64,000 nucleotides of DNA from Amoebophrya sp. A120 (taxonomy: Eukaryota; Protista; Dinoflagellata): positions 1,505,984 through 1,569,983 of the forward strand of contig CAJINV010000014.1 of the NCBI GenBank assembly GCA_905178155.1. Direction: 5' to 3'. Below the pieces are notes generated by a model. That model was not told the DNA's origin. It saw nothing but the letters and a program-made list of their open reading frames with translations, and did not search any database. Of this stretch, positions 11,386 to 63,375 are shown piece after piece. Every line of letters begins with the position of its first letter. The first letter of the stretch is position 1. The translations under genes were made by a program, and so were the position numbers.

Positions 11386-14300
11386 ATGTTGCATAATCTT
11401 CAGGGTCTCGACATGGCCGGCGCAACCACGAGTGCAGCTGCGCCTGCGATAATTCCTGACCAGGGTGCAGTTCCAGGCGTTGGGACTGCAACGGCCGATG
11501 AAGCAATTACCCTTGATGTTGTTCATCCAGGAGTGATGAATAGCCCGACCGCGGTTGCGAGCGAGGACGTGGCCCGCCAGGGTAGCAATGATGTCATCTT
11601 CACCGGCACCGCAAACGAAGACGAAAGTACGGGAGGCGGCGCGGAAAATAAGCGAGTAGATGAAAGAACAATAGTGGTCGGCGACCATGACCAAGTGGAC
11701 CAGTATAATCATGCCGGTGGTGCGACCACGTCGTGTACTACGTCCTCACCTACGACACTATCAAAAGAGCTCGAAGCGCCCAGCACTGTCGCGGATCAGT
11801 TGAGTACCATCGTGACCGCCGCTGCCGATCTGGACACCACGTCAACCACCGGAAAGGAGTCATGGCAAAAGCGGTCCACGGAAAAAGGGGAGCCCTCCAG
11901 CCGCAGCAGTCCGCGGGGCAGCGTGAGTGACGGAAATTGCAGTGAGGAGCCGCATAATTCATCATCAAACCGCGGCGTTTATTCATCTTCCGGGTGCATG
12001 AACAACATCACCAGTGGGAATACGAATACTTGCAACAGTGGTCCCCCAACTACTAGCGGGGCCGGAGGGGCGTCAACGTCTGGGTCCGGTTCCGTTGTCG
12101 TTGGTTCCTCCGTTCTGGCCGGGAAAAAGGGAGCTTCGAAAGGCTCTAATGTGAATAACCACTACAGAAAAGACTACACCAAAATGAACAACAGCCCGTG
12201 CGGTGTTGGCGGGCCAAGCAATCAGCAGATGAGTAACCGAGTAGACCACGCGATGAAGAATCAGAATGGGAATGGCTACAGGAACAGCACGACGAATAAA
12301 TCTGCTGGCAACTACGCCACCAGCTTCAATACTGGCGGCAAGGGCGGTGGTGGTGCTGGTGGGGGCCAGAATGCTCCTGTCGTGAGGAAAGACTACACGG
12401 CCTTGGCAATGCAGAATGAAAATCAAAGTCACCAGCAACATCACAATAACTACAAAAATCACTACTACAAAAACAACAATGCCTACGGGAACGGAGGTGG
12501 GGGCGGTGCGAGGATGAATCAGAAAAACAACGAGAGTGCGGGTCCTCTTCATGGCGGCTACAATAACCAGCATCAAAACAGGGCCGGATCACACACCAAC
12601 TATGGAAAAAACAATAACAATCAAAACCAGCACGCGAAAACCTACAACAAGAATTTTTCTAGCGGAACTTCGTCGCAACAAGATAGCCAGAATGAGGGAG
12701 GCAATAGCACTCATCGGATGAATAACAATCATCGTAATGCTGCTGGTGGAGGAGCTGGAGCCTCAGTCCACAACACGTCGGCCACCGGCGGTGGTGCGCA
12801 GATGCACGGTGCAGCTGGAAATGGTACCAGAAACTCGGCCGCTGCGGCTGCCGCTGGCGGTGGAGGTGAGCGCGAACAGACCTCCAACCAGAATCCAAAC
12901 GGAAACTACTTCAACCAACATTCTAAATATCAGCACCACAATCGGATGAATCAGCAGAGTGGTGGCCAGCAGAGGAACAATGCGAATACGAACGGCGCGG
13001 GGCAGCAGCAGCAGCCACACGGCGGATCATACAACAAGCACCAGCATTCATCAACCCACAACAAGTCCTCTGCGTATAATTCTGGTGCCGCTCCTTCAGG
13101 TTCTTCTTGGAACAACGCGGCCGGGGGAAATAACAGTACTACCAGCTATTCAGCGCACCACCATTCAAATGCTTCGCACTCCGCCAGCAACGGGACGTCG
13201 ACATCTAATGCCGCTGCGCCTGGCTTTTCCTCCTCCAATGCGGCCAATAAGAACAACTCCGACAAAAATTTTGTTGGAGGTGGAAGCCACAACAATAATT
13301 ACAGCAATAAGGAGAACAGCATGACCAGCGCAGCATCGTACAATTCGCAAATGAATACTGGCCACCAGCAGCCGAACCAACATGACACCAGCGCAGCTTC
13401 AGGAGCTACTACAACTTCTGGGCAACAAGTAGACCAGAAGCACACGACCACCTCCGGCCAGCAGCAGCAAGTGCACAGCACGTCTTTGATGGATGGCCGG
13501 TCGATGAATTACCATGTGCAGCTGGAAAAAGCAGTCCGGGGAAAGAAAGTGGAGGAGGCCTGGGCCATTTTGGAGGAGATGCAGCGGGATTTTGTGGTCT
13601 GCGACAAGTACGCGATATCCAGGATCTATCCAGGAAAAAAACCCATTCCCATCCAATTTGTCATGCAAAACATGCATAATTTCCTATGTTTGTCATGCAA
13701 AAAATGGATGGGGATGGGTGTTTTTTCCTGGATAGGATCCTGATGAAGACAGTAAACCACTACCACGACTTGAATCTATTGAAAAGAGGAATTGCCGTGG
13801 TGGAAACCTTTGTACACCAGCAGCCGCAGGTATAATTCGTTTTTTTTGTTTGGAATTGGGAAATTTGCATTGCCTATTTGCTTTGGTTCATGGCGTCACG
13901 TTTCTGGAACAAAAAAGCAAAACATCACCAGACAAAACGCAAGAGCCCCCTAGAATGAATGCTATTCAAATTCACGACGCTACGCCCCAGGACGTCGACG
14001 AAGTCCTTTTCAACTCGCTCCTGGACGCGTGCTGTCGCACCCGCGACATGGCACGCCTAGAGTCCATCCTGAACCAAATGCGGAAAAACGGCATCCAGCC
14101 GAGTTCCGTAACTCTAGGAATCTTGGTGAAGGCCTACGGCCAGGCGGGGGATATCCAGGCGGTGTGGCGTGAGTGGCTCCGCCTGAAGGACAACCTACAC
14201 GAGAACGCAAACGCGGTCACGTTTGGCTGCATGTTGGACGCGTGCGTGAAGTGTGGTAATTTTTTCTAAAATTTGGGTTTTCGTGTTCTTCCGTTGATGG

Positions 14301-17300
14301 TTTTTTCATCTCGGTAGATGAAGTGGAAAGCAAGCGCAACTACAGCAACAGGTGCAGACTTGTATTTTGACGGAGCCGAGAGTAATGTCGAGGTAGATGT
14401 AGTACCAGCCTGTTTATACTGTTTTGCATAAGTCGTGCCGTTTTTGTACCAAAGGACAGCATGAACACCCTCAGGCGACATCGAGAAGGCACTGTTCGTG
14501 TTCCAAGACATCAAGCGAATCGGCAAGCACCACAACACCATCCTGTACACCACCCTGATGAAGGGCTTTGGCATGGCCCGGAACTTGGACGGGGCGTTGA
14601 ACTTGTTTCGGGAAATGCGCGCCGAGGGGGTGCCCGTCAACACGATCACGTTCAACTCGATGATTGACGTGGCGGTGCGGGCGCACGACTGCGAACGGGC
14701 AGAGGAACTGTAATAGAAATTGAAATTCTTGATTTGGTCTGTGCCAGCTTTCAATATGATGTTGATGATAGATAAACATGACGATGACGGCGCTCAACAG
14801 AACAGCATCTATGCATCCTACAAGTCAAATAGTTCAACACAGTACGGTGCCCGTAGTTCTTCTTCTCGTTGGTAACTCGCATGTTGGACTAGTTGGTGTG
14901 GCGAAGCCGAACGAACGGAGCGCAGCTGAGATTGAATCAGTGAGTTTGAGTTTGAGTTTTAATTGAGCCTCCACTCACTTACACTCCGACTTCAAACGTT
15001 AGTGCTTTACTATCAGGTACCGCGAACTGGAAGAGACGAGCGGCATCGAGGCCGACCTGATTACCTACAGCACGCTGATCAAGGGGTTCTGCCAGGTGGG
15101 CAACTTGCAGAAGGCGCTTTTTTACATGGAGACCCTGAAGTACAAAAACCTGCAACCTGATGAGTTGGTGTTCAATTCCCTCTATCAAATGCAAAAGTGT
15201 CTGGGTCTGGAAGATTCTGAACCTGTGACGCTGTCTCTGGATTCTAAAAAAGTTTGATTGCATGACCGGCAACAGAACTCCAGTTTGTGCTAGCCGGAGA
15301 GGGCATTTCTCATTCGGTAGAGGCATCACAAAGGCCCCCTCTAAAAATCTGTCATGCTAGAGCATGCATCACAGACATCATGAGTCTTCCAAAATATGTA
15401 CGACAAACCTGGCAAGCTTCCAGACCCAGACATTTTTACATTTGATACCCTCCTGGACGGGTGCGTGAAGTCCAACGATCTGCAAACCGGGCTACACCTC
15501 TTCGAGGAACTGGCCAAGGAACTGCAGAAAACCTCGCATGTCACGTACCAGATTTTGCTCCGCTTGTATCGGAGGAGTGGGTACAGCGATTCGGAGACAG
15601 AGATGGCGATTCAGCAATTGTACTACAGTTGCAATGTGATGCTGCCGAACACCGCAGGAGGCGGAGCGGGCAATATTAACCATCATGGGAACAACCACCT
15701 TCACAACAATTCGTCTTCTAACGGGGCGAATGGTGGTAACAGCGGAGGGTCTTACAACAACTCGATGATGCACATGCAGGGTAGCAGCTACTCCATGGGA
15801 ACAAACAATCAGCAGCAGCTGCACCAGACTTCTCGCAACGGAAACAACAACGGTTCATCTGCCACCTACGGGCCGCACAGCAACAACCACATTGGAAGTA
15901 GTAGTGGAGGACATTATCACAGCAATAACTACAGCAGCAGTTTTTATCAAAACAACCAGGGCTCCAGTGTTTCCAACTTTCAGATTCAAGGGCCGCGGAA
16001 CAACGAGAATTGTATTCGGAATCACTTTCAGCAGGGGTGCGCAGCGACCACGAGCAGTATGATGCGGAGACAGGAGCAGCAGTCGCGGAATAAGTACATT
16101 ATTCCGTTGTATCATTTTTTGATTTCAAATTCCGTATCTGATTAGGTGATTTCAATTGTAACACGCACTTCATGCACAAGCTGCTTGTACTGGTAGATGA
16201 ATCGAAGATTTTTATGAGCACCTGAAGAATCAATTTAGTCCCTCCATCAACTTACTCGTCCAGCCGCCGTCGCGGCGAGAACTTTGGGCGGGACAATCGG
16301 GGTGCTGCTCCTCTGGGCGCCGGTGCTGGGTTTCTTGGGCAACAGGGAGGCGGGGGGCTGGGTCGCAGTTCTGGCTTTGTCCCCCCTCCTGCTGCTGGAC
16401 CGAGCGGCAGCATGGGTAATGCAACAAACGGCGGGCAATTCGGCGGCGCCTCGAAACATATTGATGGAAGTAACTGTGAACAGGGAGCAGCTGCTGCGAC
16501 TATACCTACCGGAGGTTCGTCGTATGGGAACACTGGTGTTGGAGCATCGAACAATATAAATTCGTACAACAATGGCACTAATAATACCGCGCCAGATCAT
16601 GGAGGTGCTGGCCCGCAACAACAGCACAGCCTGGGCTCCTGCAACAATCTTCCACAGCAGCACACTGCAAACCAACATGGAGGAGCTGCGCTCTCGCAGC
16701 AGCAGGATTATTTTCAGGGGTCCTTCTACAACGCCGGCGTGAATAGCACTTTAGACCAACACGCCGCTTACCAGAACCCAAATAACTACAGCAGCGGCCT
16801 CTTATCGACCGGCGGTACCACACCGGTGCACGCGCACCATCAAATTGCGGGCGGTGCCCAACAAAATGCCAACTTCAATCCATTACAGCAAGAGCACGCA
16901 TTTCAGCACGCTACAACTTCTATGAATAACAACCACGACATGGGTAGAGGAACAACATCAAATGGGTTCAGTTACAATCTGACTGCTGGTGCTATCAGTG
17001 GCCAACAAGGACATCAGCATCCCCAGCACCAGCAGAATCCGCTGCAGTTTGACAGCCAGCAGACGCATCAAAGTGGAGGGCATAGCCATAGCTTTCAAGC
17101 GCAGCTGCAGCAATTGGGCGGCTGCACTCCAGCGAGTGGCGTTATGAACAATCAGCACGGTGGTGCACTAGTTCCTGGAGTAGGACAGCACCAACAGCAG
17201 CAGCTTCACGACCAACAGTTCCAATACCACGATTTCCATCAAAACAGCACTGGAACATCATTTTTCAACAACCCTGCAGCAGCCGGAAATAACCTGTACG

Positions 17301-17692
17301 GAGGTGGTGCGGGTGGAGGTGGTACTTCTGCTCACCATCAAGGCCACCAGCCACAACTGCACAACTACGGCACGACCGGCGCTACTGCAAATAATATTAA
17401 TGCGAACGCCTGCGCAACTAGCTACAACGAAAGCACAGTATCTTCCTCCTGTGGGGGCAATGGAGGAGGTAACAAAAGTACGAGTGCCACGTTCAACCAG
17501 TCTTTTGAGTCGAAGTCCACTGCCGCAACGAATCAGTCACCGCAGGAGTCCATTGGGACCATGAACCACGATGCAATCCATGAGCGGATGTGCGGAGGAG
17601 CAGCCTCTGGAGCGGGCGCAGCTGGTGCGGGGGGAACGGCGGCGCTGTTGGAGCAGTTTCATGCTTCGTTGGTAAACGTTTTTTTACTGTAG
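11386..17692 (+). CDS. Pentatricopeptide repeat (PPR) protein with long N/Q/G/H-rich low-complexity ends; multi-exon, 3' end uncertain
   Basis: PPR motifs DEVLFNSLLDACCR, SSVTLGILVKAYGQ, NAVTFGCMLDACVK, NTILYTTLMKGFG, NTITFNSMID, DLITYSTLIKGFC, FNSLLDGCVK. They join in frame after removing introners 13627-13739 and 15183-15452 and GT-AG introns 13830-13990, 14256-14474, 14710-15016 and 16094-16263. A further exon up to ~18030 is possible. Confidence 0.85.
13627..13734. mobile_element. Introner, family A (TIR TATCCAGGAAAAAA..)
   Basis: TIRs plus GGATC TSD; removal gives ..ISRI|LMKTVNH. Confidence 0.9.
15183..15447. mobile_element. Introner, family B (TIR TATCAAATGCAAAAxTGTCTGGGTCTGGAAG)
   Basis: TIRs plus CCCTC TSD; removal gives FNSL|LDGC. 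Confidence 0.9.
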
Positions 17693-20426: not shown

Positions 20427-20441
20427 AGTAGGAGGGCCGCC

Positions 20442-23400
20442 ATGGTGAGCAACGCAACCGGGGGCAATATGAGCAGTCCGTTCGGAGGAGGTTCGGGAGC
20501 AGGGGCACTTTTGCCGAGCCACCACGACTTGCACAGCCCGGTCGTTCACCACCTCCCTCGGCAGCACCAGAATAAGATCGATGAGGAGCACCACGAGGCG
20601 AATGAGCAGTGTGTGCTCCTTGGGAAATTCGGCAGTCTTGGTTGGTGGCTGCAGGTGCTTTTGCTGGTTGTGTGTTTTGTATCCACAGTAAATTTTCCGT
20701 ACACGTACAAATGCGGTCTTTGCATGACAAAAATGGGCCCTACCCAGATAGCAACAAATGCTCTCGCCGCAGCAGTCCCAGGAGCCTTTATTTTGTTGTT
20801 GTCTCTCGGTAGTGATCACTTTGTCCAAACTTATTCTACCTAGAGTTTGTCGAGTAAGTCAGTGGCTACCGTTTTAAGTTTTAGAGAACGACAGGGACGC
20901 CCAGCCCTTAGCTTCCCAACATGACAAAAATGGGCCTCGATCCTAGTTTAGCATGACAAGTGTTGCGTTTCCAAAGATAGTGAAATTTGTGATGCGTTTT
21001 GTACATGTACAGGAAATTTGTATTGCATATTTTGTCTCCCTGATCTACAAGAGGTTCACCGACCCGGTGAGGAGAAGCTGGACCATCTGGTTTCTGGATA
21101 CCAGTAAGCAGGTAATAGGTACTAGTACTAGGAGCACTTATCATAGTACCGCTTTGGAACAAATCGAAGATGAGCCTTTTTGCATCTTCACAAATCGTGA
21201 CGCACGATCAGGAGCAGCTACAACAGCGTCAACCACTGAGATGAATTCAAATTTCAGTCTTCTTGCATTATTTAGTTGTTGACGTCGACGAACAACAACA
21301 AGCACAAGGCTCCTCCTTGAGCAAAAATGAAAACAACATGCTTACAAATCGCTACAGGGCGTCGCCGCCTGCGTTGTCCACGGACTCAACATTGCCTTGT
21401 CGAAGCTGTTTGCTTTCCTTTCCACCACACCGAACTCCGATGCCTGCAATTGGTACTGGCTGAACTTGATGCTGGACTGCACGCTGGGCGTCCTAGTCAC
21501 GTTTCTCTGCCTCCGCATTCTCTGCCGCGTCTACACCTCGGTCAGACTCGCGCTCTATGCAATGCAAAAGTATCGTACTAGTATGTATTGCTATTGCATT
21601 ACAAATTAGCCCAGCATTACAAATTGAATTTGTAATGCTGATTTCCCTTGAGAAAGAGATTTGTAATGCATAAATGCAATTAGAATTACTACGAGTACGA
21701 TACTTTTGCACAGGATACGCTCTACTGCCCGACGAAAGTGGCGAACTTCACCTACCGCCCGGAATTATGAAATGCAAAAGCATCGCACTAGTATAAATCG
21801 CATGACAAATTTCCTCAGCATGAAAAATGGAACTTGTAATGCGGATTTAGGTTAAGCTTAAGAGGGTAATGCATGACTGCGATTACTACGGGCACGATAC
21901 TTTTGCACAGGATAGGAACTCGCGAGAATTGGCGACTACGGAGACCCGATCGACTACAAGATTTACAAACGGCAACTGTTAGACTACCAGTTGATCATTA
22001 TCTTCAGCAAGATCGTGGTCTTGATCTTCGTGCAGGTCTTCTCGGATGTGTTGCTGTCGATCTCCGGCTTCATTTTGGGAATCTTCACGCCCTATCCAAG
22101 GGCGAAGCTGGTGTTTGTCATGGTGATTTATCCAGGAAAAAACACCCATCCCAATCCATTTTTTGCATGACAAACACAGCAAATTATGCATGTTTTGCAT
22201 GACAAATTGGATGGGGATGGGTGCTTTTTCGTGGATATGATTTGCCCCATCGTGATGAGCTGCTTGGCGTTGTGGGTGACCGACAACTTTTTGCAGTTTT
22301 ACAATGATTCGTTTGGCGACGTCGTCCGGGAGGAGCAGGAACTGGCCGAGAACGAATTGAAGGTAGACGAAATGGGAGGTGTGCAGCTTGACACGACGAT
22401 GCATGGGAGCAGTAGAAGTACACCAGAGGGACGAGGAGGACCCCCACACGGTCGTGGCCTTGCACGCGGCGCCGGTGGAGTTGTGCAGCACCATGCTATG
22501 GATGATTTTGTCGGCATCGGGGCTGCCAGTGCCAGCAGTAGCGGCCGCCCGTCGCGACCATTGACGCCACAGAAACAAAAAGTTTTGGATATCCACCAAG
22601 CGGATCACCTTCACGGCTTTATTTCACCTGCTGGAGACCAATTTGTTTATCAGGACAACGATGTCAGCATAGAAGATGCCGATGACGATCTATCTTCACC
22701 CGATTACAGAACCACAGCAAGAAGCAACAGAAACGGCACAACCGGGAAGAAGACGAGTGCATCTTCTAGCACGACCTCTTCGCGCCTCTACAACCAAATA
22801 GCAAGGCGGAAGAGCGACAGGGATTTGACGCTGAACGTAAAGCCAAGGCAAAACGCTGCTAATTCCTTCGCAGCAAACGTGATAGGTGGGGCCAGAACCA
22901 TGCTAGGAGGCGGCGGAGGTCGGAACAATGATAATAGGGCCACATCGTCAACATCGGCTGCAGCGACCTCTAGTTCGCTCGCCTTGGGAGTTGCGGGACG
23001 AGATGTGGCGGTGGCCAACATGGTTGCAGCTACACCGGGCGGAGGAGCTTCTTCGTCCTCATCAACTTCAATTTCGAGCAAAAAAGCTGGTACTAGTACG
23101 AAAACAGGAAGACAAGCAGCGAGCGCCACGTCATCATCAAGTGGTTTGAAAGCTTCTTCCTCGGGCTCCGTTCTTATGGACCATGTGGTAGTCGACGGTC
23201 ATATCGAAGATGAAGAAGAAGATCAACCTCAGCTCGCAGTGGAGACTCAGCTCTACAACTCCAAGACGACATCGTCCTCTGGTGAGAGCCGTATAATAGG
23301 ACGCGGAGTCGTGTCGACGTCTGCTGCGGTAAAAACCTCCGCAGCGGTCGCTGGTCCTGCTAGCGGACTCCTTGTTCAACATGGAGGGTACCAGCACTTC

Positions 23401-49867: not shown

Positions 49868-52800
49868 ATGTTCGACGACGAGCAGATGAAATGCAAACAG
49901 AGTGGTCACGACATCAATACCAAAAACGCCGGCGTGGTCTCAAGAAGCCGAAGCAATGCGGCATCTTCTTCGTCCTCGGGCGGGTCGTCTGGAAATGTCG
50001 AAGAGGAGGTGGACACAAGTACTTCCGGCGACGTCCACAGAGAAATTTCCTCCGAAACTAACAAGCAAGCCGCGAGCGTCGCTGGTGATGCGACTGCGAG
50101 TAGCAGCTGTGCAACTTCTGGTACCGAAGAAGACGAGGAGAATCAGGATGGTCGTGTTGAGAAGCTGCACGATGAAGGCACAGAGAAAACGACGCACCAG
50201 GACCCGCACAACTGCCAGAATTCTTCGACTATGTTGAACTTGAAAACTTCTACATCGGACACTGTCACTGACCAGCAGCACGACCCACACCAGAACACCA
50301 TCAACCAGAAAACGAAAACTGGCAAGCGCAGCTCTTACACGAGCCGCCGCGCGTCCTCCTGTCCCTCCCCCGTTACCGTTTCCTCGCCGGGTAGTGATGA
50401 CGCGAATGAAATCTTGCACCACCTGCGCCGGAACTCCACGACGCAGTGTGCCGTAGGTTCTCCCTCCACTAGCAAAAATCTCGAGGCGCAGCTATCATCG
50501 CCGCTGCAAACAGATAAGCAACATGACGTGGGTTTTCTTTCCGAGCAGAAGCGGCGGTCCTCGTCGCTCTTATCCCGTTCCTTCGCACGAAAAAGCTGCA
50601 ACCTGTACAACGCAAACGTACAACAGCTGCAGCAGCAGAATCGCAGGCGGTCCAGCTATCTAGCTGCTAGTACCGGGGGTGCTGGAAGTTGTAGTAGTCC
50701 ACTCGGAGCTACTGCCAGTGCCGGAGGTGGTTCTCCCAGCGCAACGTCCTGTGGTGGAGCTGCAGTGGCTTTTTGGTCATCATCTCCCACTACAAGCGTT
50801 GGAGCGATGAACAAGTCTCATAACAAGAGACAGATGGTGAAAGAGCAACAGAAACGCCGGAAAAGTGGTAGTCGCAAGGAACATCACGGTAGTAGGGGTA
50901 ATATTTTGACGAGTTACCACCAACAGGAACACGTCCAGCCGTTTGAGGACTTGGCGCTTTATACAACAACTGCTTGCTCGTCCACGATTACACCGGGGAC
51001 GACCAGTGCTAGCGCCACAAATCATCATGCACATGCCGGACCAGGACCCCAGCAAGGTAATGCGCCGGAAGAACAGCAACAGCACGGTGGACAAGTCAAA
51101 CAAGGAAAGGAAGTAGAGAAACGGAAATCATCCAAAAGAGCCAGCGAGACAAGAAGTGACCGGAAGAACAGAAAGTCTACTTCTAAAGATCAGTTGCAGC
51201 AGAACTGCACCGCATCAGGCCACGCATCGCGCTCCACGACGAGCTTCTGTCCCTCCTCTTCCGCAAGTTTGGGAGCTGCAAAGAACCTCGTAACCGCGGA
51301 GGATGTTGCGGCGCTGCGTGACAATATGATGAACAGTCCCTCCACCGCCACGCCAGGTCCGCGTGGGAACAAAATTAACACCCTAAACGGACTATCCTCC
51401 GCAAAAGCATCAATATCGCGGCACTCGTAGTGATTTTTGCAATCATGCAGCACTAATCCGCCGGTTTTCTACCCGCGAATCCACTTGTAAGCTTGAAGCG
51501 ATTTCGTAGGAATTCGATAAGCTCAGTTTTGTAGCAAAGGAAAACTTCGCGGATCTAAAGATCATTATATAAACAGGGGGATGCGCATCCTATAAACGCA
51601 TACACGATCAAAATTTTACAGTATTCAGTTTCGGTTTCGTCCTTGATCCTAAATCGCGTAAAGCTAGGAATTCTTTTTTCGTCGAGGACTTTTCCCGAAA
51701 CACACTGTAAATTCACCATTCTAAAAATACTGAAGACTCAGCGGAGTCACACCGCTCTTCTGTTCGTATTCTCAACACACTAGCGCGCGCGTTGCTTCCA
51801 TATTCATAAGAGAGTTTTTTTCTGTCGACGCAAAGTCTTTCTTTGAGCTCTGGGTCTGTTTTTTCTTCCACTCGAAGCTTCTATTTTTTTCTCTCGTTCA
51901 TCTGGCAGCGCACAAAAATCAACAAACTCACTTCCTAGAATCAATTTGTATAAGTTGTTTTTTTCCCAGCCGGGTCAGGCTTCAGAACTCAGGACTCAAG
52001 ATAACACTCGAGCCGGACGCAACCGGCAGCCGCGTTATCATCAAAGCAAGCACGAAGGTATCTAATAGAGTTTCTTTCTGGAAAGCCCATGCATGAAATA
52101 CAGATCCATGCTTCCAGATTCGGACTCACTCTTTTCCGCAACTCTACCCAGGTATGCCAACGGTAGCCGTGCAAACCGAGAGCACGGGCCCAGACCTGGA
52201 GGCTTCTATGGCGGCGCTGTTCAAGCACAACGTCGTCATGCAGAAGGAAAGCACGAAGCTAATCAAGGAAGCCGAAGAGCTGCGCAAGCAGAATCAGCTC
52301 CAGTGCGCCAAGTGCGGCTACAACAAACTGCAGTACACCAGGATCCAAGTCGAGAAGCAGATTCTGTGCAGCGCGGTCGCGGAATGCGTTTCAACGGAGC
52401 CAGCAAAAGCGCTTCAGGCGTGCTTGCGAGAGCTGGGCCAGCGCCTCGGGAAAGCAGTCGACTACGCAAAAGCGGGCACTTCCGCTAGCGAAGCAGGTTG
52501 GGAACGACTGGAAGACATCCAGTGCGCAAACAACCGAGCGCTGACGGGTCACGACATTCGTGACATCCAATCCGACATCCGGGACTTCCTCGAGGACTAC
52601 CAGCGCTCCTACAACCACTTGCAGGAACTCAAGCGCTACCTCATCATGCTGAAAGTCCAGACGCACGGAATGCTGAGCGAAACACTGGCGCTAGGCGGTA
52701 TTATGCCGGAGCACAGAGCTCGGGTGATCCGGAAGTACACCGAAGCTCTCCATGACCACAAACTCGTCTTCGCCTTGTTGTTCGACTCCGACGAGGTCGA

Positions 52801-55800
52801 AGTGGACACACTGGACGAAGCAATGATCCAGTCCATCATCGAACTACAAATCGCAAGGAAGCGGATCCGGAACGGGGAAGACGTGATCGATGAATACGGC
52901 CTTCCAACCCGTTTTCCGACGCAGCGCGAGCAGACAGTTTTGCGACCACAAGCAACGCTCGCTGTAACCGGTGGCCAATACACGCCAACCGCCGGATCGT
53001 GGTGGATGAGGAACGAGAACCATGACCACACACGAGAAATTGATGATCTCGCGGGTCGCATATTGACCGCACTCAGAGCAGCCAGAGTGTAAAGCCCTTC
53101 ACTTGTACAATTTCAATAATTCTAAGCATCAATGTAAATTTCTGAAGCAATCCAACACACAAGTAACACCAGTAACATGAAATCTTGTGCAATTTCTTGG
53201 TATTCAACGGTAGTCCGAAAGCGCAAAGCTGAATCCCACACCAAAAATTCTTCGCTCGCCGCGGCTAAGCACCCAGCAGCTCTTGTTGCAGGCCGCGCGA
53301 GTGTTCTTTTCTCATGCTGAAATCAACCCACAACTCAGCTTCAGGAAAAAGAAATCGCTCAGTCGCATTCGTGCCTTCAGTCGTGTTTTTCCCGAAGGTA
53401 GGCCAGATTTCGTCATCGTGTTTTTTCTCATAGTCGCGTTCAAGCAGCGACTCCAATTTCGTGTTTTTTCCTTTTTAGAGCGATAAGAGAGAGCTTTTTC
53501 TTGTTTTTTGGTCCGCGAGAGTCACTTCGTCAACCTTTTCGCTTCGATTTGGCACGAAGTGCTTCACACTTTCCAGGACAGCTCTCTCAGTTTTAGTAAA
53601 AGTAAGTCAGTCCAGTTTTTCCCTCGCGTTACCACACAATGGCAGCCGACAAGAAGTGCACTATCTGCGACACCACGAAGGCCGACGCGCAGATCAAGTT
53701 CTTCTGCAAGAACCACTCCGCGGCCACGTCGTGCAAAAACTCCGTGTGCAACGAGTGCGACAAAGAAAACGGAGAATTGTGCATTCGCATGTTCGCCACG
53801 GTGAACCACTTGGACCCGGCTTACACGATCTGCAACAAATGCGACATGAAGTTGCACACCGGTCGGATCAAAAAAGTCGAGGCAACTCTGAAGGAAGCTG
53901 CTGGTGATTCTACACTGGCGGCGAACGTGATGGCTTCCGAGCCGTGGTGCTCGGGCTACGTCAATCTCACCGACGCCGAGCGCTTAGAAGGACTCAAAAA
54001 CTGCAAACGCCCGGCGGTAGTTCCTTTTTTTGCTTTCTTAAAATTGTTCATGCATCATGAGACCAGCATGACACTCCGAATTTTCAAACTCAAACTCCCA
54101 GTTCCGCGAAGTGGAATCCAGCCGCTTGGACACCTCGGAATTGATCTTAGCGCACCAGTCGCAGCAGTCGACCACCGGTGGTGCCACCTCGGAAGCCTTG
54201 TTCAAGGATATCAAACGGCAGAAAAACGACCACTACCGTTTGAAGGTAGTGTTTTTCTTTGCTGTAATCTTTCAGATTTACACTCTCCACCACTCTCATG
54301 TGTAATGTCCGGCTTCAATCCAACCACAGGATCTTTTGTTGCCGGCGCACGGTGGAAGCATTCCGAAGGCGATCCGCCACTACGAAAAGTGCACTCTGCA
54401 CTTCCCGGGCACTCCGTGCGCGCTGGTGGCGGCCCGCAACATGTTCTTCTTGAAGTACATTTTGGACACTTCGCAGAACAACGCCTCCAAGAAGGCGATC
54501 CACGCTGACCCGCCGATCAACTTGAACTACTCGGCGTGCGCGACCTTGAAGTCCTTCCACAAGAAGATCAGTATTTCTTGTTCCTTTCTTCTGCTTGATG
54601 CGATGCTCGCGATACCCATGCTTCGAGTTATCTTCCCTTTAATACTTTCAGAACTGCGCACGCGCATGGAAGCGACGAAGCAGGCGCTGTTCACGTCGTA
54701 CTTTTTGCCGGAGTTCGTGTACTCCTGCTGCGCCAACCTGTCGAGCCCGTCGGTGTTGGCTTCCATGCTGAACACCTTACCGCCCGCGACTAACCCGATC
54801 GCGGCAAGCGCGCCGGCGCCGAAGCGCACCCCGAGGCCGCAGCACACCCCGACCGTGCCGAACACTCCGCATAAACGGCAGGGGAACGATCAGTACAACT
54901 CTCCCAGCACCCAGTACTTGCGTGCGGGGGACTCCAGCCAAATGCTGCCGCCGGCCACACCGCCGCAGTACCACCGCACCGGCAAGCCCCAGGGCATCCC
55001 AATGTCGCCGGCGCCGACGGTCCCCTCGACCCCGTATAAGGGCGGACCGGCCGATCAGTCCCAGCTCGCCGAGATCCAGCGTATCCTCTCCGGGGCGAAT
55101 CGCGATTCGCAATCGGCCGCTGCGGCTTTCTCCTCCGCAAAATCGGCGCACCAGGGCGCGACCTACGAGTTCTTCACGAAGAACGGTTACTGTCGCAACT
55201 GCTTCTTACTGGGCAAGGGTCTCGGGCAGTTTCACGGACCGTCCTACGCGGAGTGCGAGCAGCAGGGCAGCCGTTGCCTCATCCAGTGCACGTGGTGCAA
55301 CGAAGGGCAGCACTGGTTGAACCAGTGCCCGCGGAAGAACGCCGGTCAGCCGTCCGCAAAGGGCAGCAGGGGCAAGGGCCGCTAAATGATGATCGCAATT
55401 TCTAGCAACAAGCACTCGCGCCAAGTTTTTTCGCTCGTTTCTTTCGGTACATTTCGAAATCATTTTCATCTTCAGTATCCAGCGGTAGGTGTCAGTCACT
55501 CAAGCCTGTGCATCGCATTCACTAAGTTAAGTTTCACAGGATTCAATCAATATTCAAGTAAAATTAACTTCAAATTTACGAATTTCAGTTAAAAAAATTT
55601 ATTTTGTGCCGCTCAGCAGCAGATTAAGGAGCAGTAAAGTATAAGTAAGTAGTCCTAGTTATCAGAGTTCCCATCTTCGCCACCTCATGACACGCAAAAG
55701 AGACAAACACAAGTTTCAAACATGGCATCGGGGAAAGTGAAGACAAGAAGTCAGTATTAGCGATTCAGTCACGGACTCGCACCGAAACAGAATCGCTCAA

Positions 55801-58800
55801 CATAGAGTGAGTCAATGAATCAACTCCATTCGTTTAGCAACTAAAATTTCGGTGTTTTGTGATTTTTTCTCGCGCAGAGGCGCGCTCGACGGTTGGGGAA
55901 GGCGCTCTGCCCATCATGAGTTACTCGTCGCTCATGCTCCAGCATGTGATGAAGCGGGCGCTTGGCGACGAACTGGCCGAAGAGCGTGGCATCAAGCTCC
56001 GCAAGGACTCCGAGGATCAAGCCAAGTTCTTCGCACAAAGGGCGTTCAACTTGCAGCAAGCGAACGCGAACGCACCCGCGGGAGAGCATGGCGACGCTCT
56101 CTTCGACGATTTCGAGGCTTTAGGCGCGGAAACTGCAATCCAGTCCGTACCGCAGGACCAGCTTGCGGCACCTCCGCAACAACAGGCTTCTTCCAGTTCT
56201 GCCTCGTCTTCTTCCGCACCAGCGATGAGCTCGCTAATCCAAGGTCAGGCAACGAGCAGCAGTTCTCAGATAAGTCAACTCGAACCACTCCCCAACATTT
56301 ACAACAACTTCATCGAGGACCCACCAAGCTCTCCGGAGTTCATGTCTGTGCCAGACCTTCAGGCACAGGTCCAAGCAATCAACGGCGGCACTTCAACAAC
56401 TTGGCTTCCGGCTTCAACCGGAGCGGGCTTTGTACACCAGCAACCCGCTCAATCATCCTCGAGCGGAAGCAGCACACAACCCGCGTCTTCCATTGCTACG
56501 GCACAGCACAAATACAAGCCGTTCGTCTCTTCGAAGCAATTAGATCTCAAAATCTTCCCGGAAAGACTTTCCGTGTTCCAGGAGTTCCCGCTTGACGAAA
56601 TGCGGCGAAGAGCGCTCGTGGCTGCAGCTACGCGATTCGCGGAAAGCAGCATAAGAGAGTCAACCTGTAACACCTATTCCGGCGTGTTGAGCTCGGTGGT
56701 GCCACGGATTTGCGAAGTGTTAAATTTCCAGCTTTGGCCAATCACTTCGGCATCCGAAGCAGAACTGTTCTTCACGGCTTTCGCAACTTCAAAAAAAGCA
56801 CATGCGAACCACGTGAACAAAACGTCGGGCAAAGTGAATTGGAGCAGCTTTCGCAGCATCAGCTCCGCCATTTCGGCCTACAACAGCTGCAGGACCAACG
56901 TGAACAATTTCTCTATGAGGAACAAGGACCGGTCTTTCCAGCGGATTTGGGAAGGTTTCAAAAGGAGCGCCGCTCACCCGGTAGCAGCGGACGCGAAGTT
57001 CGCTCCTTCAGAACACCACTTGGAGCGCATTCTGAAGTCGGCAAAGGACGATTTTGTTTCCATCTGCTGCCCCAACGACATAGCAGCAGCGCATCCCACC
57101 TGGACCAAGTCTGCATTCGAGGACAAGCAGGCCTTGCAGGTGGCCATCATGTTCCAGTACGCGGTTATTGCGAACGTCGGGTTTTACGGAGTGCGGCGCG
57201 CAGCCGAGTTGATTGCCTTCTCTTCCGATGATGTGGAAGTAAAAAGGCTGACGGCGGACCAGCATGCAGATCGACCGCGGTTTATCAAGTTAACGGTCAA
57301 AGAAGCGAAAAACGACGTCTACGCAAAGGGCGACTTTTGCATCATTCCGGCAAAGGTCGCAAACTACCTGCTGACGTGGATGAAATACGCGCACGCCTTC
57401 ATCCTGCACCACTTCAAAGCAAGATACTTGGCCGGGGCGTGCTCGCTGTTTTTCACGATCGGAACAACGAGAATCAAGACACGCGGTTGCCCTCTGTCGA
57501 AAGACGCACTCCGCAAAGGGATCAGGAACGCACTCACCGCGTTCGCACAAGTAACAAAGCCGATCTCGCTCCGCAGAGGCGGGGCGCAGTATTACGCGCA
57601 GATAGATCGCCACACGGCATGGGCCCAGGGCGGTTGGCGAAGTATGAGGATGCTTGACGAAGTCTACGCTCCGAAAGAAGACTCCAAGCTTGCCGCGGAG
57701 ATTCACGAGTGCTCCAGGGTGGGCGAACTCGAAAAGCAGCAAACCGCCATCATCAAGGCGATGGAGGATTGCCTCGCTATTCAGGACGCAGAAGGCATGA
57801 CCAAGCACCTAAATGACTTCAACCCGAATTTTATCGGCTCAGAAAAAATCAAAATCCACGCTCCAAAGATTTTCAAAAGACTCATGTTGAAAAATTTACA
57901 CAAGACGCACTTCAAGAAGCTGTATTTGATATTCTTTCCGGACATGGAATTCCCAGAAGGCACCAGCCAGCTGGCTGCCACCGCGAGCTAAGTCTTCTCG
58001 TTCCTTTGCATAAGTCTCTCGTTGAGAACTTGAGCTTCTGTGCTTTCGTGTACCAGCTTTCAGTGCTTGAGCTTTGGGCTTCAAAAAAAATTCAAAAGAC
58101 ATAAGACAGCCAGGCAACAGACACACAGCCGATTGACCCATTCTCGCCTAGTGTTCTGCTGTGGCGTCCTCGAGTTCGTCAGTAGTCGCCTCATCGTTTT
58201 TTTTTCTCAAAGTTCGTGAACCATTCGTGCGCTCATCGCATTGTCGGCATGAATTCCTCATGGTTTTTTTCAGTTTTTTGTTTTGCGACTCCTGCGGGTA
58301 GTTCTTCCTGTCCTTTTATCAGCGCACTTCTGCTCTCTCATTATCGCCTAGTACGCAGCATCATCGGAGAGATTGCATTCGTTTCTATCGTCGCGTCTTC
58401 GCTTTGACACTCTCGCTCCTTCCATCGCAGTCTTTGTTTTTCACCTGCACTTGTGGCAGGCGCGGTAGAATAATGATAATTTCGGAACGCACAGATGAGG
58501 AAGAACAAATGGGAACTCAGCCCACCTCAGAGTGGTCAGTCGAGGACTACAAGGCTCTGGGCATCCCGACCAACGACGTGGAAGTCCGCGAGTTCATTCG
58601 CAGCCAGGAGGGCCCGCAGGACGAATGGCGCGAGCAAGAGGACGACTTAGCCTTCGACGGTCTCTCCCTGTCGGCTAGACAGTGTTGTCGTTATGGCGCT
58701 CATCCCGACTTCATGACGCGCTGGTTTGGTGGTTTGAAGTTCAAGTGGCTCGCAGACTCTTTCACTCCGAACCGTACCGAAAATTATCCCGGCGCAAGCG

Positions 58801-61800
58801 CATACGAGGATATTTTCACGAAGGAAGTCTACCGGTTTGTGGAAAGCAAGAAAGTGTTGCTGTACGACAACAACGGTCCGCCCGATCTGGTTATAGCACC
58901 GGGCTCCATCATCCCGCAGAAAGGGAAATTCCGGTTAATAACGGACTGGCCAAACTCAGAAGTAGGAGTCAGTTCCAGCATATTCGCCACCGCTGTGAAC
59001 TACAGCAACTGGTGGCAACTTCTCGAGTTGATTGGCCCCGGTTCAATCGGCTTCGGCTGGGATCTACAAGACTGCTACCGTATTCAAAGTTTTTGTTTGT
59101 GATAAGTTCGCTTCATTTCTAGACAAATCGCGCTGACTTGGATTTCTAACTTCATCTCAAAAAACAGCCCACTGGATGATCCACCCGAGCTTCAGGCGAC
59201 TGCTCGGGCTGTCCATTCCGCAAACAAGCAGAACGGCGGTGCACTGTTTCTTGCCTTTCGGCCTCAATTGCGCCCCCGGAGACAACGACGAATCAGTGAA
59301 GCGCCTGATTTCCATGGCGCACAGTGCGGGTGTAGATGCGAAGATCCTGGACTTTGTGGACGACCTCAGAGGAATCGTTCCGCGCCCACTTTCGCACCGG
59401 ATGGACATCGCACAGCGCGAATTTAACAAGGTGTTTTTCATCCTTTCGACGTTAGGGTGTAGATTGCACACCAAAGCGGGGAAACTCATTCCTCCTTCCA
59501 CCTTCTTCCCGTGGTTGGGGTTCAATTGCGACACGGTCGACATGTCGTTCGGGGTGGAGGATGACAGGCTGGAGGACTGCCTCAAAGCAGTCCAGGAATT
59601 CAGAACCGAGATAGCAAGTGACCCAGGTTCCGCCACTACAGCAAGGAGGGCGGCGAAGGTCGTCGGGAAGCTCACCTCCATATCGCTCGCAATCGACGGA
59701 CCGTTGCGCAACTTGCAAAACAGTTTAAACGCGAGCGGTTGTTACGCCCTGTGGCAGTCCAGCAAAACCCACAATCCGAAGGTGGTGATTTGCAGCGAAG
59801 GAAAAGCCGACTTGGTGTGGTGGAGCGACACCCTCATCGCCAAACCAAGGGCGAGAATCCACTTCAACGGTTTGAGGAGTTTCTTGTGGCGCGAGGACGT
59901 GCTAGCATTCGGAGCCAACTTCTTCAGAAGCCTCGACCCCAACTCGTTCACAGCGTTCTCAGGGGATGCAGCCACGTCAGCGGGTTGGGGCGGGAAGTTC
60001 GGGCAGCAAAGTTTTGCCGACAGATTCCCGGTTTGGCTACAAGGGCAGTCGATAAACGTTTTGGAATATGCAACGCCACTCCTCATACTGCTACGAGTGG
60101 AAGCTGCGGACGCAAGCAAACTGTCGGGGAAAATTCTCCTTTACTACACTGACAACCCCGCTTGCAAAAGAGGAGTAAACCGCGGCAACTACTCCACCCC
60201 AATCTTCTGCAGGATCACGAGGGAGCTGAAGTCGCTGCTGGTCCGGAACAGGGCGGAACTAGTAGCAGCAAAAGTTTACGGCTCGCAGAACATTGAAGCC
60301 GATTTGCTGTCGCGCTTTGACGACAACATCAAATCGATCACGGACAACAGCCCGGAGAAGTTTCGGACGAGCAGAGCCTGGAACCACATTTGCAAGACGC
60401 TCCCGGGTCTGGCAATCGAGGCGTTCAGCTCCGCGGATGCATCAAGCACCTCCAGAAGACTGAGCCGATACTTCACGGCAAACAGTCCGCCGCTCTTCAG
60501 CTTCGAAGAAATTTGCGAAGTACGAAGCTGGTGGCTTCCACCGGCCGACCTGCTCTACGCAACATTGAAGTTTCTGAACAAAGCGTTGCAGCCAATCCCG
60601 GCGGCCAGCAGACCGAGGATAGCAATCTTAGTCCCAAAAATCAACAACAAATTCGCAAGTTTGCTCGGGCCGTTCGGGAAGCCAGTCATCAAATTCAAGA
60701 GAGGCAAAGACCTCTTCCGTTTGGAAGGAGTAAGCCACAACATCTCGGCCGATGACGACTATCGGGTCTACTCTTCCGTGCCATTGCACGAGTGGATCAA
60801 GAGCGACGCAGTCATCAACGTCCCCAGTGCCCAAGTGGAAAAGTTGCTGAAGAGCGCGGCGTTCATGAGAACTATCGGCGACACCAGCAAAGTGGACTTC
60901 TCGCCGATTGAGTACTCGACGGCGGATTGGATAATCCACATTTGCTGCGTAAAACCAATTCGTCCTCTGGGGATCGCAAGAGCGATATTCGCAGTCCACA
61001 AGCACGCGAATACTTACGACAAACCAGAATCTGCCAAACCCTTCGGCAGCTACGAAATTCTGAACAAAGTCGTGAACATTTACGCCATGAAGCTGCCGGG
61101 TATCGGCGACGGCGACGGTCGGCGACGGTCGGTGATGCAGCCGCGTCCCGCCTTCAAATCTTCGACTCGTGTATGATGGATTTGGCATCAAAAGCGGTGT
61201 CGTTGGGTATCTCGTCGGTCTCCATTCCGCTCAGGATCGGATGCGGGTCGTGTGGAGGCAGAGTCGCTGACTATGCTTTAGTCATCGAGCGATTCATCGC
61301 GAATTGTGAAAGAAACAACATCAGTGTGCGACTACATGACATTCCGACAAAACTCTAAATTTGTAAACCATTTGTTTCAAAGTCTAGTCTTGTGCAGTCT
61401 TTCGCTGGTTTCGCAACATAGTCTCTCTATTGTGCTTTTGATTGATAGCACGACCCTATACAATTTGCACACATGCATCAGATCCTTCGCGGAGTTACTC
61501 ATACTTATCCTGCTATCATGCCTTGCCACAAACTCAGCGGTCTTCGTCTGTTCGCGTTTCGATCACAGAAACAAGAGATCACATACAGGCAGAGATCCTC
61601 TCGTTCTCGCTGGGTGTCCGTCGACACGGATACGTGCAGGGCAGGAGCAAAATAAGATCCTACGAAGTTGACGAGCGAAAAATTGTAAGCTTGAAGCGAT
61701 TTCGTAGGAATTCGATAAGCTCAGTTTTGTAGCAAAGGAAAACTTCGCGGATCTAAAGATCATTATATAAACAGGGGGATGCGCATCCTATAAACGCATA

Positions 61801-63375
61801 CACGATCAAAATTTTACAGTATTCAGCTTCGGTTTCGTCCTTGATCCTAAATCGCGTAAAGCTAGGAATTCTTTTTTCGTCCCTCCCTCCACTCCCTCGG
61901 AGATTCCTTTCCTACCTCGAATTTCAAATATTTCATAAGCGAAGCTTTCCTATTTATATTCCTCACGTAATCCCAGTTCGACGGTCACCCATTTCTGCGA
62001 GAGGGGGTTTTTGCCACAAACTCAGCGGTCTTCGTCTGTTCGCGTTTGTTTCGATCACAGAAACAAGAGATCACATACAGGCAGAGATCCTCTCGTTCTC
62101 GCTGGGTGTCCGTCGACACGGATACGTGCAGGGCAGGAGCAAAATAAGATCCTACGAAGTTGACGAGCGAAAAATTTCAACATGACAAAATTTTCCATTT
62201 CTCATGCTAAAAGAAATGAACTCGTCATGCGATTTCTGCATACACCAAGACCAACTGCGATCCATCTTTTGCAATGCATACGAACCACCACCAACTCATC
62301 CTCCTCGGTGATGTCTTCCTCAACAAAGTCAAAGATGAGGTCGGGGACTATCGGCTCTGCCTACTCCTCCGGTAGTGAGCTCTTCGAGCTTGGTATGCAA
62401 TACAAATTTCCTGTACATGTACTGCAAGTTGGAGCATGCCACTTGTCATGCTGAATAGGATTGGAAGAAAAGTTTGCCATGCAGAAACCGCATTTGTACG
62501 TGTGCGGGAAATTATTTACTGTGGATACTTGGAAGAAATAACTCAACAAACTTAAACTCATCTTCTCCCGCCAAGCCGCCCAACAAGCAACAAAACGATC
62601 CTGATTTACTATTTACGTCGTCGACCCCGAAAAAGGACTCGAAAACGAGCATCAGCTCCTTTGACCACATGATGAACAACTACTCGCCGACCTTGCTGAA
62701 GACTCTGCTGAATTTCTCACCAACGGCCAGTATCGGTTCCTCCTGGAAAATATGCATTGCAAAAGTATCGCTATCGTACTAGTAGTATAAATTGCATTAA
62801 AGAAAGAAAAATGGAACTTGTAATGCTAATTCAGGTAAAAAGGTAGGTTTGTCATGCAAGATTACAATGAATTAGTAATGGCACGAGTGCGATACTTTTG
62901 CAAAGGATAGAAAATGTTGACAAGTGGAACAAAAAGCCCTAGCAAAGTTCCAACTGCGAAGGTGATGCCGCTATCTTCCACTTCTTGCGACAAGAGCAGT
63001 AAAAACGCTCTGGACTTCATCGACGTCACCGCAGCCGCGTTTCGGGATGAGGTCGCACCACTGGTGGAGGATAGCATCGATGAGACCACATCTCGGGATG
63101 TTCTCGCGGAAATGCAGCAGAGCAAATTCACCATCCGGGAAGATTCTTTTAGTAAGGCGGAGAAGGAGGGAAAACTGAAACTATCTGCCAGGAGCCGGAG
63201 CAAGTTGTCTCTGTCCAATACGAAGAGTAGCCGCAGCCCCTGCGGGTCGAGCAGAAGTACCAAGGAGCGTGGCACAGCGTCGTCGTCGGGCCGGAACTTA
63301 AAGAACACTCATAGTCGGCGAGGGAAAAGTTTGTGTTGCTGTTTCTACGACGAGAACGAGAACAACGTGGAGTAG
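49868..63375 (+). CDS. Hypothetical S/Q-rich low-complexity protein, split by an introner that holds the retrotransposon
   Basis: ORF 49868-~51392. Downstream exons ~62281-62393, 62533-62750 and 62915-63375 join in frame with each other. The join across 51393-62280 is off by 1 nt from the standard rule. Confidence 0.5.
51485..51683 (+). repeat. Split direct repeat A1
   Basis: 199 bp, one visible mismatch to 61683-61881. Confidence 0.93.
52154..53092 (+). CDS. Retroelement ORF1, unknown function (helical, CxxC)
   Basis: 312-aa intact ORF inside the element. Confidence 0.65.
   Translation: MPTVAVQTESTGPDLEASMAALFKHNVVMQKESTKLIKEAEELRKQNQLQCAKCGYNKLQYTRIQVEKQILCSAVAECVSTEPAKALQACLRELGQRLGKAVDYAKAGTSASEAGWERLEDIQCANNRALTGHDIRDIQSDIRDFLEDYQRSYNHLQELKRYLIMLKVQTHGMLSETLALGGIMPEHRARVIRKYTEALHDHKLVFALLFDSDEVEVDTLDEAMIQSIIELQIARKRIRNGEDVIDEYGLPTRFPTQREQTVLRPQATLAVTGGQYTPTAGSWWMRNENHDHTREIDDLAGRILTALRAARV
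53639..55385 (+). CDS. Retroelement gag-like ORF2 with N-terminal Cys-rich finger and C-terminal zinc knuckle; spliced
   Basis: CxxC clusters at the N-terminus; CRNC and CTWCNEGQHWLNQC (CCHC) at the C-terminus. Phase-0 GT-AG intron 54017-54329; probable in-frame intron 54571-54651. Confidence 0.7.
55916..57991 (+). CDS. Tyrosine recombinase of the retroelement
   Basis: GFYGVRRAAEL (R), EAKND (K), ISLRRGGA (HxLR box with His replaced), GGW.S..M..VY (Tyr). First ATG at 55916. Confidence 0.88.
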   Translation: MSYSSLMLQHVMKRALGDELAEERGIKLRKDSEDQAKFFAQRAFNLQQANANAPAGEHGDALFDDFEALGAETAIQSVPQDQLAAPPQQQASSSSASSSSAPAMSSLIQGQATSSSSQISQLEPLPNIYNNFIEDPPSSPEFMSVPDLQAQVQAINGGTSTTWLPASTGAGFVHQQPAQSSSSGSSTQPASSIATAQHKYKPFVSSKQLDLKIFPERLSVFQEFPLDEMRRRALVAAATRFAESSIRESTCNTYSGVLSSVVPRICEVLNFQLWPITSASEAELFFTAFATSKKAHANHVNKTSGKVNWSSFRSISSAISAYNSCRTNVNNFSMRNKDRSFQRIWEGFKRSAAHPVAADAKFAPSEHHLERILKSAKDDFVSICCPNDIAAAHPTWTKSAFEDKQALQVAIMFQYAVIANVGFYGVRRAAELIAFSSDDVEVKRLTADQHADRPRFIKLTVKEAKNDVYAKGDFCIIPAKVANYLLTWMKYAHAFILHHFKARYLAGACSLFFTIGTTRIKTRGCPLSKDALRKGIRNALTAFAQVTKPISLRRGGAQYYAQIDRHTAWAQGGWRSMRMLDEVYAPKEDSKLAAEIHECSRVGELEKQQTAIIKAMEDCLAIQDAEGMTKHLNDFNPNFIGSEKIKIHAPKIFKRLMLKNLHKTHFKKLYLIFFPDMEFPEGTSQLAATAS
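58404..61176 (+). CDS. Reverse transcriptase - RNase H - (DNA adenine methylase-like) polyprotein; spliced; 5' end uncertain
   Basis: KGKFRLITD, WDLQDCYPHWMIHP (across GT-AG intron 59080-59167), LPFGLNCAP, FVDD, PWLGF. RNase H: GDAA..GWGG, INVLE, TDN, NIEADLLSR. Then IEAFSS..RYFT..WWLPP..IAILVP, resembling the DIRS MT domain. Confidence 0.9.
61523..62176 (+). repeat. Split direct repeats B1-A2-(spacer)-B2
   Basis: B1 61523-61684, A2 61683-61881, B2 62011-62176 (4-nt indel versus B1). Confidence 0.93.
62394..62527. mobile_element. Introner, family C
   Basis: CTTGG TSD; frame ELGRNNS. Confidence 0.88.
62751..62909. mobile_element. Introner, family D
   Basis: GAAAA TSD; frame SWKMLTS. Confidence 0.88.

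Follow-up and report, generated by a model that had tools for sequence, protein, structure and literature searches.

In a 64,000-nt stretch of the genome of Amoebophrya sp. A120 (contig CAJINV010000014.1, positions 1,505,984 to 1,569,983; hereafter the window), the short motif TTGTVATGC recurs inside introners, that is, elements that begin with TAT, end with ATA and belong to families that can barely be aligned with one another. We consider it probable, at roughly two chances in three, that this motif is a subterminal binding site on double-stranded DNA for one putative shared transposase that would mobilise all of these families. The motif is unlikely to be a splicing signal, and removal of the elements from RNA is likely guided by the terminal hairpin and the element ends.

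The window contains 54 exact matches to the motif (29 on the plus and 25 on the minus strand) where 2.07 are expected, a number reached by none of 100 shuffles. This enrichment, whose absence the initial annotation had named as a result that would speak against its proposal, is confined to the introners: 53 of the 54 matches fall inside 25 TAT..ATA elements totalling 5,130 bp, which amounts to 10.3 matches per kb within elements versus 0.017 per kb outside. To define the elements, inverted repeats flanked by duplications were searched for and the set was completed by eye; the elements carry a 5-bp duplication (fully decayed in the copy at 30747), and two of them have one altered end base (Table 1; family letters A-G are labels of this analysis). 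None of the 24 short elements lacks an exact copy, and 18 have at least two, in keeping with the initial description of the motif as usually repeated, and each of the eight places cited there indeed carries it (9-mer starts 13658, 20987, 21661, 24520, 28930, 29423, 36424 and 36857). The motif had also been described as rare in exons and GT-AG introns; this holds, given the single exact match outside elements and the lack of any copy in 11 GT-AG introns (1,866 bp; picked by eye from the sequence, with no RNA check). In a k-mer count, the motif was the top 7-, 8- and 9-mer common to all seven families of the window. Its fuller consensus is A(A/T/C)TTGT(C/A/G)ATGC, and the centre base among 858 sites was C in 378, A in 317, G in 158 and T in 5. 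With T at the centre, the site would contain TATG and so resemble an element end, which may explain why T is avoided.

A larger sample came from a motif-pair pattern search of metagenomes (25 of 64 parts scanned), which returned 137 loci, 118 of them from one assembly (prefix JACKZZ01) with elements up to 93% identical to those of the window. This second assembly supplied 350 non-redundant elements, 339 of which have an exact motif. In families not targeted by the query, the motif is present in 179 of 187 elements, with 402 matches versus 2.3 in shuffles. When the motif was masked, 374 elements clustered into 16 multi-member families and 6 singletons, and the motif occurs in all of these; the median element length is 209 nt, and the profile-based set excludes locus L238 of the second assembly. 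No credible element was found in the 19 metagenome loci from other assemblies (one weak candidate, L134, lies in a satellite) or in 123 loci with a motif pair in viral contigs, and none of 25 loci in prokaryote genomes had an element-like pair.

The families had been called otherwise unrelated in the initial annotation, which is correct for some and incorrect for others. No masked consensus matches the profile of another family at E<0.001, and three tested family pairs have no homology outside the motif (14, 27 and 56 of 100 shuffles). Several pairs are deeply homologous, however, since global alignment revealed homology for C/D, F8/F9, F8/F11 and A/A' (0 of 100 spacer shuffles each) and borderline homology for E/F12, F8/F14, F/G and E/F (1-4 of 100). 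In homologous pairs, the motif columns are 75-95% identical at kept positions and the spacers 54-67% (77% for A/A'). For instance, motif columns are identical at 28 of 33 positions in C/D versus 62% elsewhere, and at 41 of 44 in F/G versus 56%. Because the motif was kept and its positions stayed fixed while the spacers diverged, it was preserved through the radiation of the families.

The motif also has preferred positions. The centre of the nearest site lies 33-58 nt from the element end in 74% of cases (family-balanced), and distances below 33 nt are essentially absent, which matches the initial impression that copies lie 30-50 nt inside the ends. At 32 family ends, the first site is found 36-59 nt in; with its orientation taken into account, the distances gather around 38 and 48 nt (R 0.66 at a period of 10-11, nominal p 0.0003). 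A direct pair 31-33 bp apart is present in 13 of 16 family consensuses, and in 9 of 12 untargeted ones versus 1.46 expected. The motif occurs two to six times per element, with further copies at preferred spacings of 31-34, 46-50 and 15-18 bp. Families F and G have their inner spacing in common (48/49/46-47); what sets them apart is a gap of 10 bp at each end. The spacing of the motif is that of the DNA helix. A strict 12/23-like rule for the ends is not borne out; 38/48, 48/48 and 38/38 pairings all occur.

With respect to the level at which the motif acts, it shows no preference for either strand: it is found 556 times on the transcript strand inferred from a codon model and 545 times antisense, and family A, whose two sites are on the same strand, is inserted 7:7 in the two orientations. 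The 5'-most and 3'-most sites have diverged to a similar degree (0.092 versus 0.101, p 0.43, 196 copies), as have sites in the two orientations (0.130 versus 0.136), and end-most sites are better kept (0.09-0.10) than middle sites (0.16). Where motif copies face each other in the hairpin, G-U is as frequent as A-C (55 versus 56) and the centre base is unpaired in 85 of 114 cases; the motif is not selected to pair in an RNA hairpin. Decay was timed by the mismatch between target-site duplications (TSDs) in 221 copies of untargeted families; no shared-insertion paralogues that would allow a direct post-insertion measure were found among the elements. The divergence gained after insertion was +0.039 (0.020-0.058) for the motif, +0.042 (0.016-0.068) for other internal positions and 0.041 for the terminal stem, and copies without an intact site numbered 5 of 236 against 6.0 expected, a comparison of low power. 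Nearest relatives have the same orientation in 188 of 366 copies; orientation thus is not inherited, as expected for DNA transposition, and an introner that moves as RNA by reverse splicing, for which inheritance of orientation is expected, finds no support. Likewise, a spliceosomal branch site or splicing enhancer should be strand-specific, 3'-proximal and protected after insertion, and the motif displays none of this apart from slight protection on conserved columns.

The initial annotation had proposed a common cis-code, read either by the transposase or by a splicing factor. The cis-code itself is supported and fits a transposase site, whereas its splicing branch fails in four respects (strand, 3' side, G-U pairing and decay). 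Common ancestry with neutral decay, which had been named as a finding that would count against the proposal, is partly what we observe: ancestry is real for several families, and the motif decays in older copies. Both remove only the splicing reading, because a transposase site is expected to be kept in copies that move and to decay in those that stay.

All families share the same three-part end, consisting of a TAT(C/G) tip, an A-run at positions 11-14 and the first motif 36-59 nt in. The family-balanced end logo gives a frequency of ~1.0 for TAT (which was required by the search) and 0.78-0.92 for A at positions 11-13. At positions 4-7 of the terminal repeat, the two ends mismatch in 37-64% of cases in all families, versus 4-8% at positions 11-14; positions 4-7 are an open loop near the hairpin base. 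Among 469 profile-defined copies, the 5-nt TSD is exact in 310 and has one mismatch in 108. Its sequence is arbitrary and without base preference, such that the target supplies neither GT nor AG; provision of the splice dinucleotides by the target is ruled out, there being no AG at TSD positions 3-4 and no G at 5. The elements sit in genes in either orientation. They are short and non-coding, with terminal inverted repeats (TIRs), terminal stems, TSDs and many copies in 16 multi-copy families, all of which are features of miniature inverted-repeat transposable elements (MITEs), and the summed contig depth of run X5 over elements is far above that of single-copy stretches (depth is not copy number). 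The motif, for its part, has the properties of subterminal transposase-binding repeats, being repeated, end-proximal, present in both orientations and phased in its spacing, with some off-phase variants. By their sequence, with TAT followed by seven variable nucleotides and an A-run, a short border repeat and removal without GT-AG, the elements fit the published introners of A120. These are described, in the available part of the report, as having an inverted repeat of TAT, seven variable bases and an A-run, flanked by direct repeats of 3-5 nt, and as non-canonical, hairpin-forming and spliced, with very many families (PMC7789003).

Removal from RNA was followed in contigs of runs X1 and X3, which come from one sample and whose RNA status is a guess, over 28.0-39.0 kb of the window, where the gene at ~34-39 kb lacks exon coverage. 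Four joins in these contigs (28262/28529, 30745/30949, 31711/31929 and 32113/32273) each skip an element plus 5 nt, and a contig of run X5 is continuous across 30188-32168. Five more elements (28897-30225) were probably removed as well, since the predicted and the observed remainder are both 215 nt. At 30745/30949 the intron unambiguously consists of 1 nt, TAT..ATA and 4 nt, with an N-T-A start like GTA whose first base is free. With the duplication at 30747 fully decayed, this one junction is what sets the cut, 1 nt upstream of TAT and 4 nt downstream of ATA; the remaining three joins are compatible with that register. Both orientations appear to be removed within one transcript (28899 and 29759, by the same remainder length). 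A further RNA-level signal is found at position 21 of the terminal repeat in family C (e.g., 43385-43541), where U-G outnumbers C-A by 49 to 5 on the inferred RNA strand, whichever end is 3' (column test p 2e-7; 22 versus 7 when strands are called locally). The bias is no stronger in older copies, and substitutions elsewhere are strand-symmetric; outside family C, the U-G excess is not significant (155 versus 137). This column shows orientation-dependent selection on the terminal hairpin at the RNA level and, as one column, points to the terminal stem rather than the motif as a determinant of splicing.

In the mechanism that we favour, transposase subunits would occupy adjacent motif copies along a single face of the helix, bring the two element ends together, cleave at TAT and integrate with a 5-bp stagger. 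Mobile copies would have to keep the motif and its spacing, and both would in this way have survived while the spacers diverged; in a copy that has landed, the motif would be largely free to decay. Removal from RNA would be guided by the terminal hairpin and its ends. A bolder version, to which we give somewhat less than even odds, is a two-layer code that makes one system of hundreds of TAT-ended families: one unclassified transposase would read the helically phased motif array on DNA, and a splicing machine without U1 would measure from the terminal hairpin in RNA and place its cuts 1 nt ahead of TAT and 4 nt past ATA, regardless of the sequence there. If this were true, an insertion into an exon in either orientation would be removed without a trace.

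Several points weigh against the transposase reading. No transposase or autonomous element was found in the window or in the 118 loci of the second assembly, long elements included, and Farhat et al. (2021) found none in A120 and argued against transposase-mediated mobilisation, as stated in the accessible part of their paper (PMC7789003). The phasing is a tendency: a shift of 3-6 nt is seen in 140 of 653 within-family end-to-site distances and one of 9-11 nt in only 28, so that a within-family preference for 10-bp shifts is not borne out, and a 24-copy subfamily of C has its site at 43 instead of 47, 4 nt off. The p-values for spacing are inflated by the shared ancestry of the families and by the dependence between left and right ends. 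The transcript strands in the second assembly derive from the codon model (726 concordant versus 108 discordant pairs) and not from RNA. When the comparison is restricted to conserved columns, decay is slightly weaker in the motif than elsewhere (0.039 versus 0.057; interval of the difference -0.035 to -0.001), and some very old copies retain motif pairs after their ends have decayed (30747, 31714; L191, L184 and L154).

That no transposase was found would equally suit a host DNA-binding protein (for example, one that acts in transcription or on chromatin) recruited by the elements to assist in pairing their ends or in copying, with a cutting enzyme that reads only the TAT tip and the A-run. 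All DNA-level results (strand symmetry, phasing, spacing, kept columns) fit this alternative just as well. The CATGCA half of the motif presumably resembles apicomplexan AP2 sites. Sites of such a factor would however be expected to be enriched in promoters and intergenic regions, whereas there is a single exact match in ~58.9 kb outside elements, and the motif occurs in just 2 of 72 non-element non-coding segments (as delimited by a noisy intron parser, hence a rough background); we regard a host factor as unlikely. Somewhat less probable still is an RNA signal for the removal of non-canonical introns, either a branch-site-like word usable both ways owing to a U-N-A core on either strand or a protein site, and in any case redundant. 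Its appeal lies in the presence of the motif in nearly every non-canonical element as opposed to none of the 11 GT-AG introns, in the exact copy retained by each of the old spliced elements at 30747 and 31714, in 38 exact sites, several of them paired, that persist outside any family profile, in the slight protection on conserved columns and in the reported lack of U1 small nuclear RNA (snRNA) in A120 (PMC7789003, available part). Yet neither strand nor 3' side is distinguished, G-U is not in excess in motif duplexes, the bulk of the motif decays like other positions and motif-free copies are not in deficit, with the low power mentioned. Moreover, family A is inserted equally in both orientations, both orientations appear to be removed from one transcript, and a fixed spacing of 31-33 nt is unexpected between single-stranded sites. 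Rfam detected no family in the window, snRNAs elsewhere being outside this search.

It could finally be argued that the motif is a functionless relic of one ancestral element behind all families, as the deep homology of C/D, F8/F9/F11 and A/A', the borderline cases and the near-neutral decay after insertion might suggest. Against this, motif columns and spacing were kept in pairs whose spacers have diverged below profile detection, T is avoided at the centre (5/858), and three tested pairs of families lack homology outside the motif. The relic reading therefore is close to refuted, and we consider it very improbable.

As to the mobilising enzyme itself, Pfam revealed no transposase among 19 open reading frames (ORFs). 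Some of the family F shells contain cargo, and 736 nt of the copy at 24474-26666 are 93% identical to an 815-nt copy in the second assembly (6184-6998 of locus L147). A family 38 of A120 has been reported with a 5-bp TSD, TA/TA termini, a length of 808-810 bp and the label 'Ginger-like' (Gozashti et al. 2025, PMC12130899, as far as the accessible part goes). Since the 815-nt copy is an ordinary F shell with cargo and close to family 38 in size, the retroelement homology of the latter may be captured sequence. In addition, a 10.7-kb element (51485-62176) lies within a family C introner and has split direct repeats (51485-51683 = 61683-61881 and 61523-61684 = 62011-62176). By eye, its ORFs include a putative tyrosine recombinase (55838-57991) and a putative reverse transcriptase (58302-61176); the element has no Pfam match, and the recombinase-like ORF no match in PDB. 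We take this layout to be that of a Ngaro-type retroelement.

Some further observations concern the elements and their surroundings. Across both assemblies, the elements show 640 A>G and T>C substitutions versus 249 of the types C>T and G>A. Insertions of 3 and 6 nt are in excess over other sizes (262 and 89, versus 73, 48 and 32 for 2, 4 and 5 nt; shared ancestry enters these counts), with no frame bias in total intron length. In locus L191, an old TAT..ATA relic (~7530-7645) retains two exact motifs at a distance of 32 and can be read in frame as a GT-AG intron; it lies within a gene that, from its translation, we assume to be acyl-CoA-synthetase-like. By eye, the window contains a diverged gene in tandem duplicate (~1960-3220 and 6150-7420), and between the two gene copies a near-identical ~600-nt repeat (3829-4450 and 4703-5290).

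Table 1. Introners of the window and the lone motif outside them. Positions are those of the window; the sign after a motif start gives its strand.
Feature	Position	Strand	Details
Family A	13627..13734		TSD GGATC/GGATC; motif 13658+, 13690+ (direct pair, 32 apart)
Family B	15183..15447		TSD CCCTC; exact motif 15323-, plus three degenerate sites
Family D, reverse	20680..21029		TSD TTTTG; motif 20722-, 20951-, 20987+
Family C	21556..21717		TSD CGCTC; motif 21596-, 21614-, 21630+, 21661+
Family C	21766..21914		TSD GGAAT/GGAAC; motif 21800-, 21834+
Family A, reverse	22129..22237		TSD TGATT; motif 22165-, 22197-
Family F shell, ~1.9 kb cargo	24474..26666		TSD GAAAG; motif 24520+, 26519-, 26568+; eight cargo ORFs without Pfam match
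Family B	28265..28525		TSD CTACG/CTCCG; motif 28351-, 28390-, 28478-; element + 5 nt skipped in RNA-like contigs
A-like subfamily	28899..29006		TSD CGGAC/CGATC; motif 28930+, 28962+; probably removed (length of contig remainder)
Family F	29082..29317		TSD GGCGG; motif 29222+, 29268-; probably removed (length of contig remainder)
Family E, left end TAG not TAT	29382..29692		TSD TGTAC/TCTAC; motif 29423+, 29589+, 29637-; probably removed
Family A, reverse, right end ATG	29759..29876		TSD CATCA; motif 29795-, 29827-; probably removed
Family E	29911..30224		TSD ACTTC; motif 29956+, 30091-, 30127+; probably removed
Old, D-like	30747..30944		Inverted repeats and TSD decayed (CGTGA/AGCTC); motif 30882+; spliced 30745/30949
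Old, D-like, reverse	31714..31925		TSD TCGAC/TCAAC; motif 31784-; spliced 31711/31929
Family D	32120..32273		TSD TCCCG; motif 32157-, 32191+, 32223+; spliced, 159 nt skipped
Lone exact motif outside elements	35267..35275	-	Apparent coding sequence; chance level
Family E	36384..36689		TSD TTGCC; motif 36424+, 36592+, 36641-
Family G	36825..37040		TSD CAAAC; motif 36857+, 36952+
Family B	38047..38313		TSD GGCGC; motif 38181-, 38266-
Family A	38359..38467		TSD GATTT; motif 38391+, one-mismatch copy 32 nt further
Family B	40786..41047		TSD GTTGC; motif 41000-
Family C	43385..43541		TSD TGGTG/TGGTC; motif 43460+, 43491+
Candidate old TAT..ATA element (probable)	43849..44143		One-mismatch motif copies only (43905, 44066); putative boundaries
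Family D	44681..44874		TSD TCTGA/TCGGA; motif 44727-, 44770+
Family C, reverse, split by 10.7-kb insert	51393..62280		TSD CGGAC/CGAAC; degenerate motif near 62180, 62199, 62222
Family D	62394..62527		TSD CTTGG; motif 62443+
Family C	62751..62909		TSD GAAAA; motif 62818+, 62849+

Subterminal repeats are known from hAT and CACTA elements, and a hAT subgroup with a 5-bp TSD provides a possible lead for the class of the enzyme. The internal transposase sites of the P element are a precedent: its terminal inverted repeat of ~30 bp encloses a distinct ~10-bp site for the protein, found at two distances that differ by roughly one turn of the helix (PMC7776569, in the portion available). The P element differs in its 8-bp TSD and in joining one short and one long end by rule, as opposed to the 5-bp TSD, the mixed end pairings and the two to six sites in both orientations seen here, which argues against membership in the P superfamily. 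IS3EU/GingerRoot elements have TA..TA termini like ours, but their TSD is usually 6 bp according to the consulted part of the source (PMC10045372), versus 5 bp here, where four joins skip the element plus 5 nt.

Introners make up a large share of A120 introns, and neither what mobilises them nor how they are spliced is settled in the available part of the describing paper (Farhat et al. 2021, PMC7789003). Our elements agree with that description in the TAT/seven-nucleotide/A-run repeats, the direct repeats, the hairpin and the non-canonical splicing. They differ in that the same part reports no internal shared motif, no family-specific inverted-repeat motifs and variable splice positions, whereas our elements have a uniform 5-bp TSD and the four joins displayed agree with one register. 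The A120 families of Gozashti et al. (2025) are TIR DNA elements of 106-390 bp, like those here; in the 38 of 58 rows covered, the superfamily is given as unknown for 37 of 38 A120 families, and no cross-family motif is mentioned (PMC12130899). A motif of this kind in introners was not found in the portions searched of these and other papers (including PMC11282704, PMC9860276 and PMC12005148), whose figures or supplements, or Roy et al. (2023), could hold it.

With a motif common to all of them, the many families become a single system. The motif also offers a defined bait with which the protein may be sought and a signature by which to recognise the autonomous element in the full assembly, and the separation of a DNA-level motif from RNA-level end signals narrows the search for the unusual splicing mechanism. 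Another precedent is the Emigrant MITE (Emigrant/Lemi1), in which, as here, non-autonomous elements carry repeated subterminal motifs, and there the transposase binds them cooperatively in trans (PMC1636448, available part). The Emigrant motif belongs to one family, whereas here one motif spans 16 barely alignable families whose members leave no trace in mRNA. By analogy with such systems, the kind of signal, a subterminal transposase site, appears to be a known one, and its extension across introner families appears to be new.

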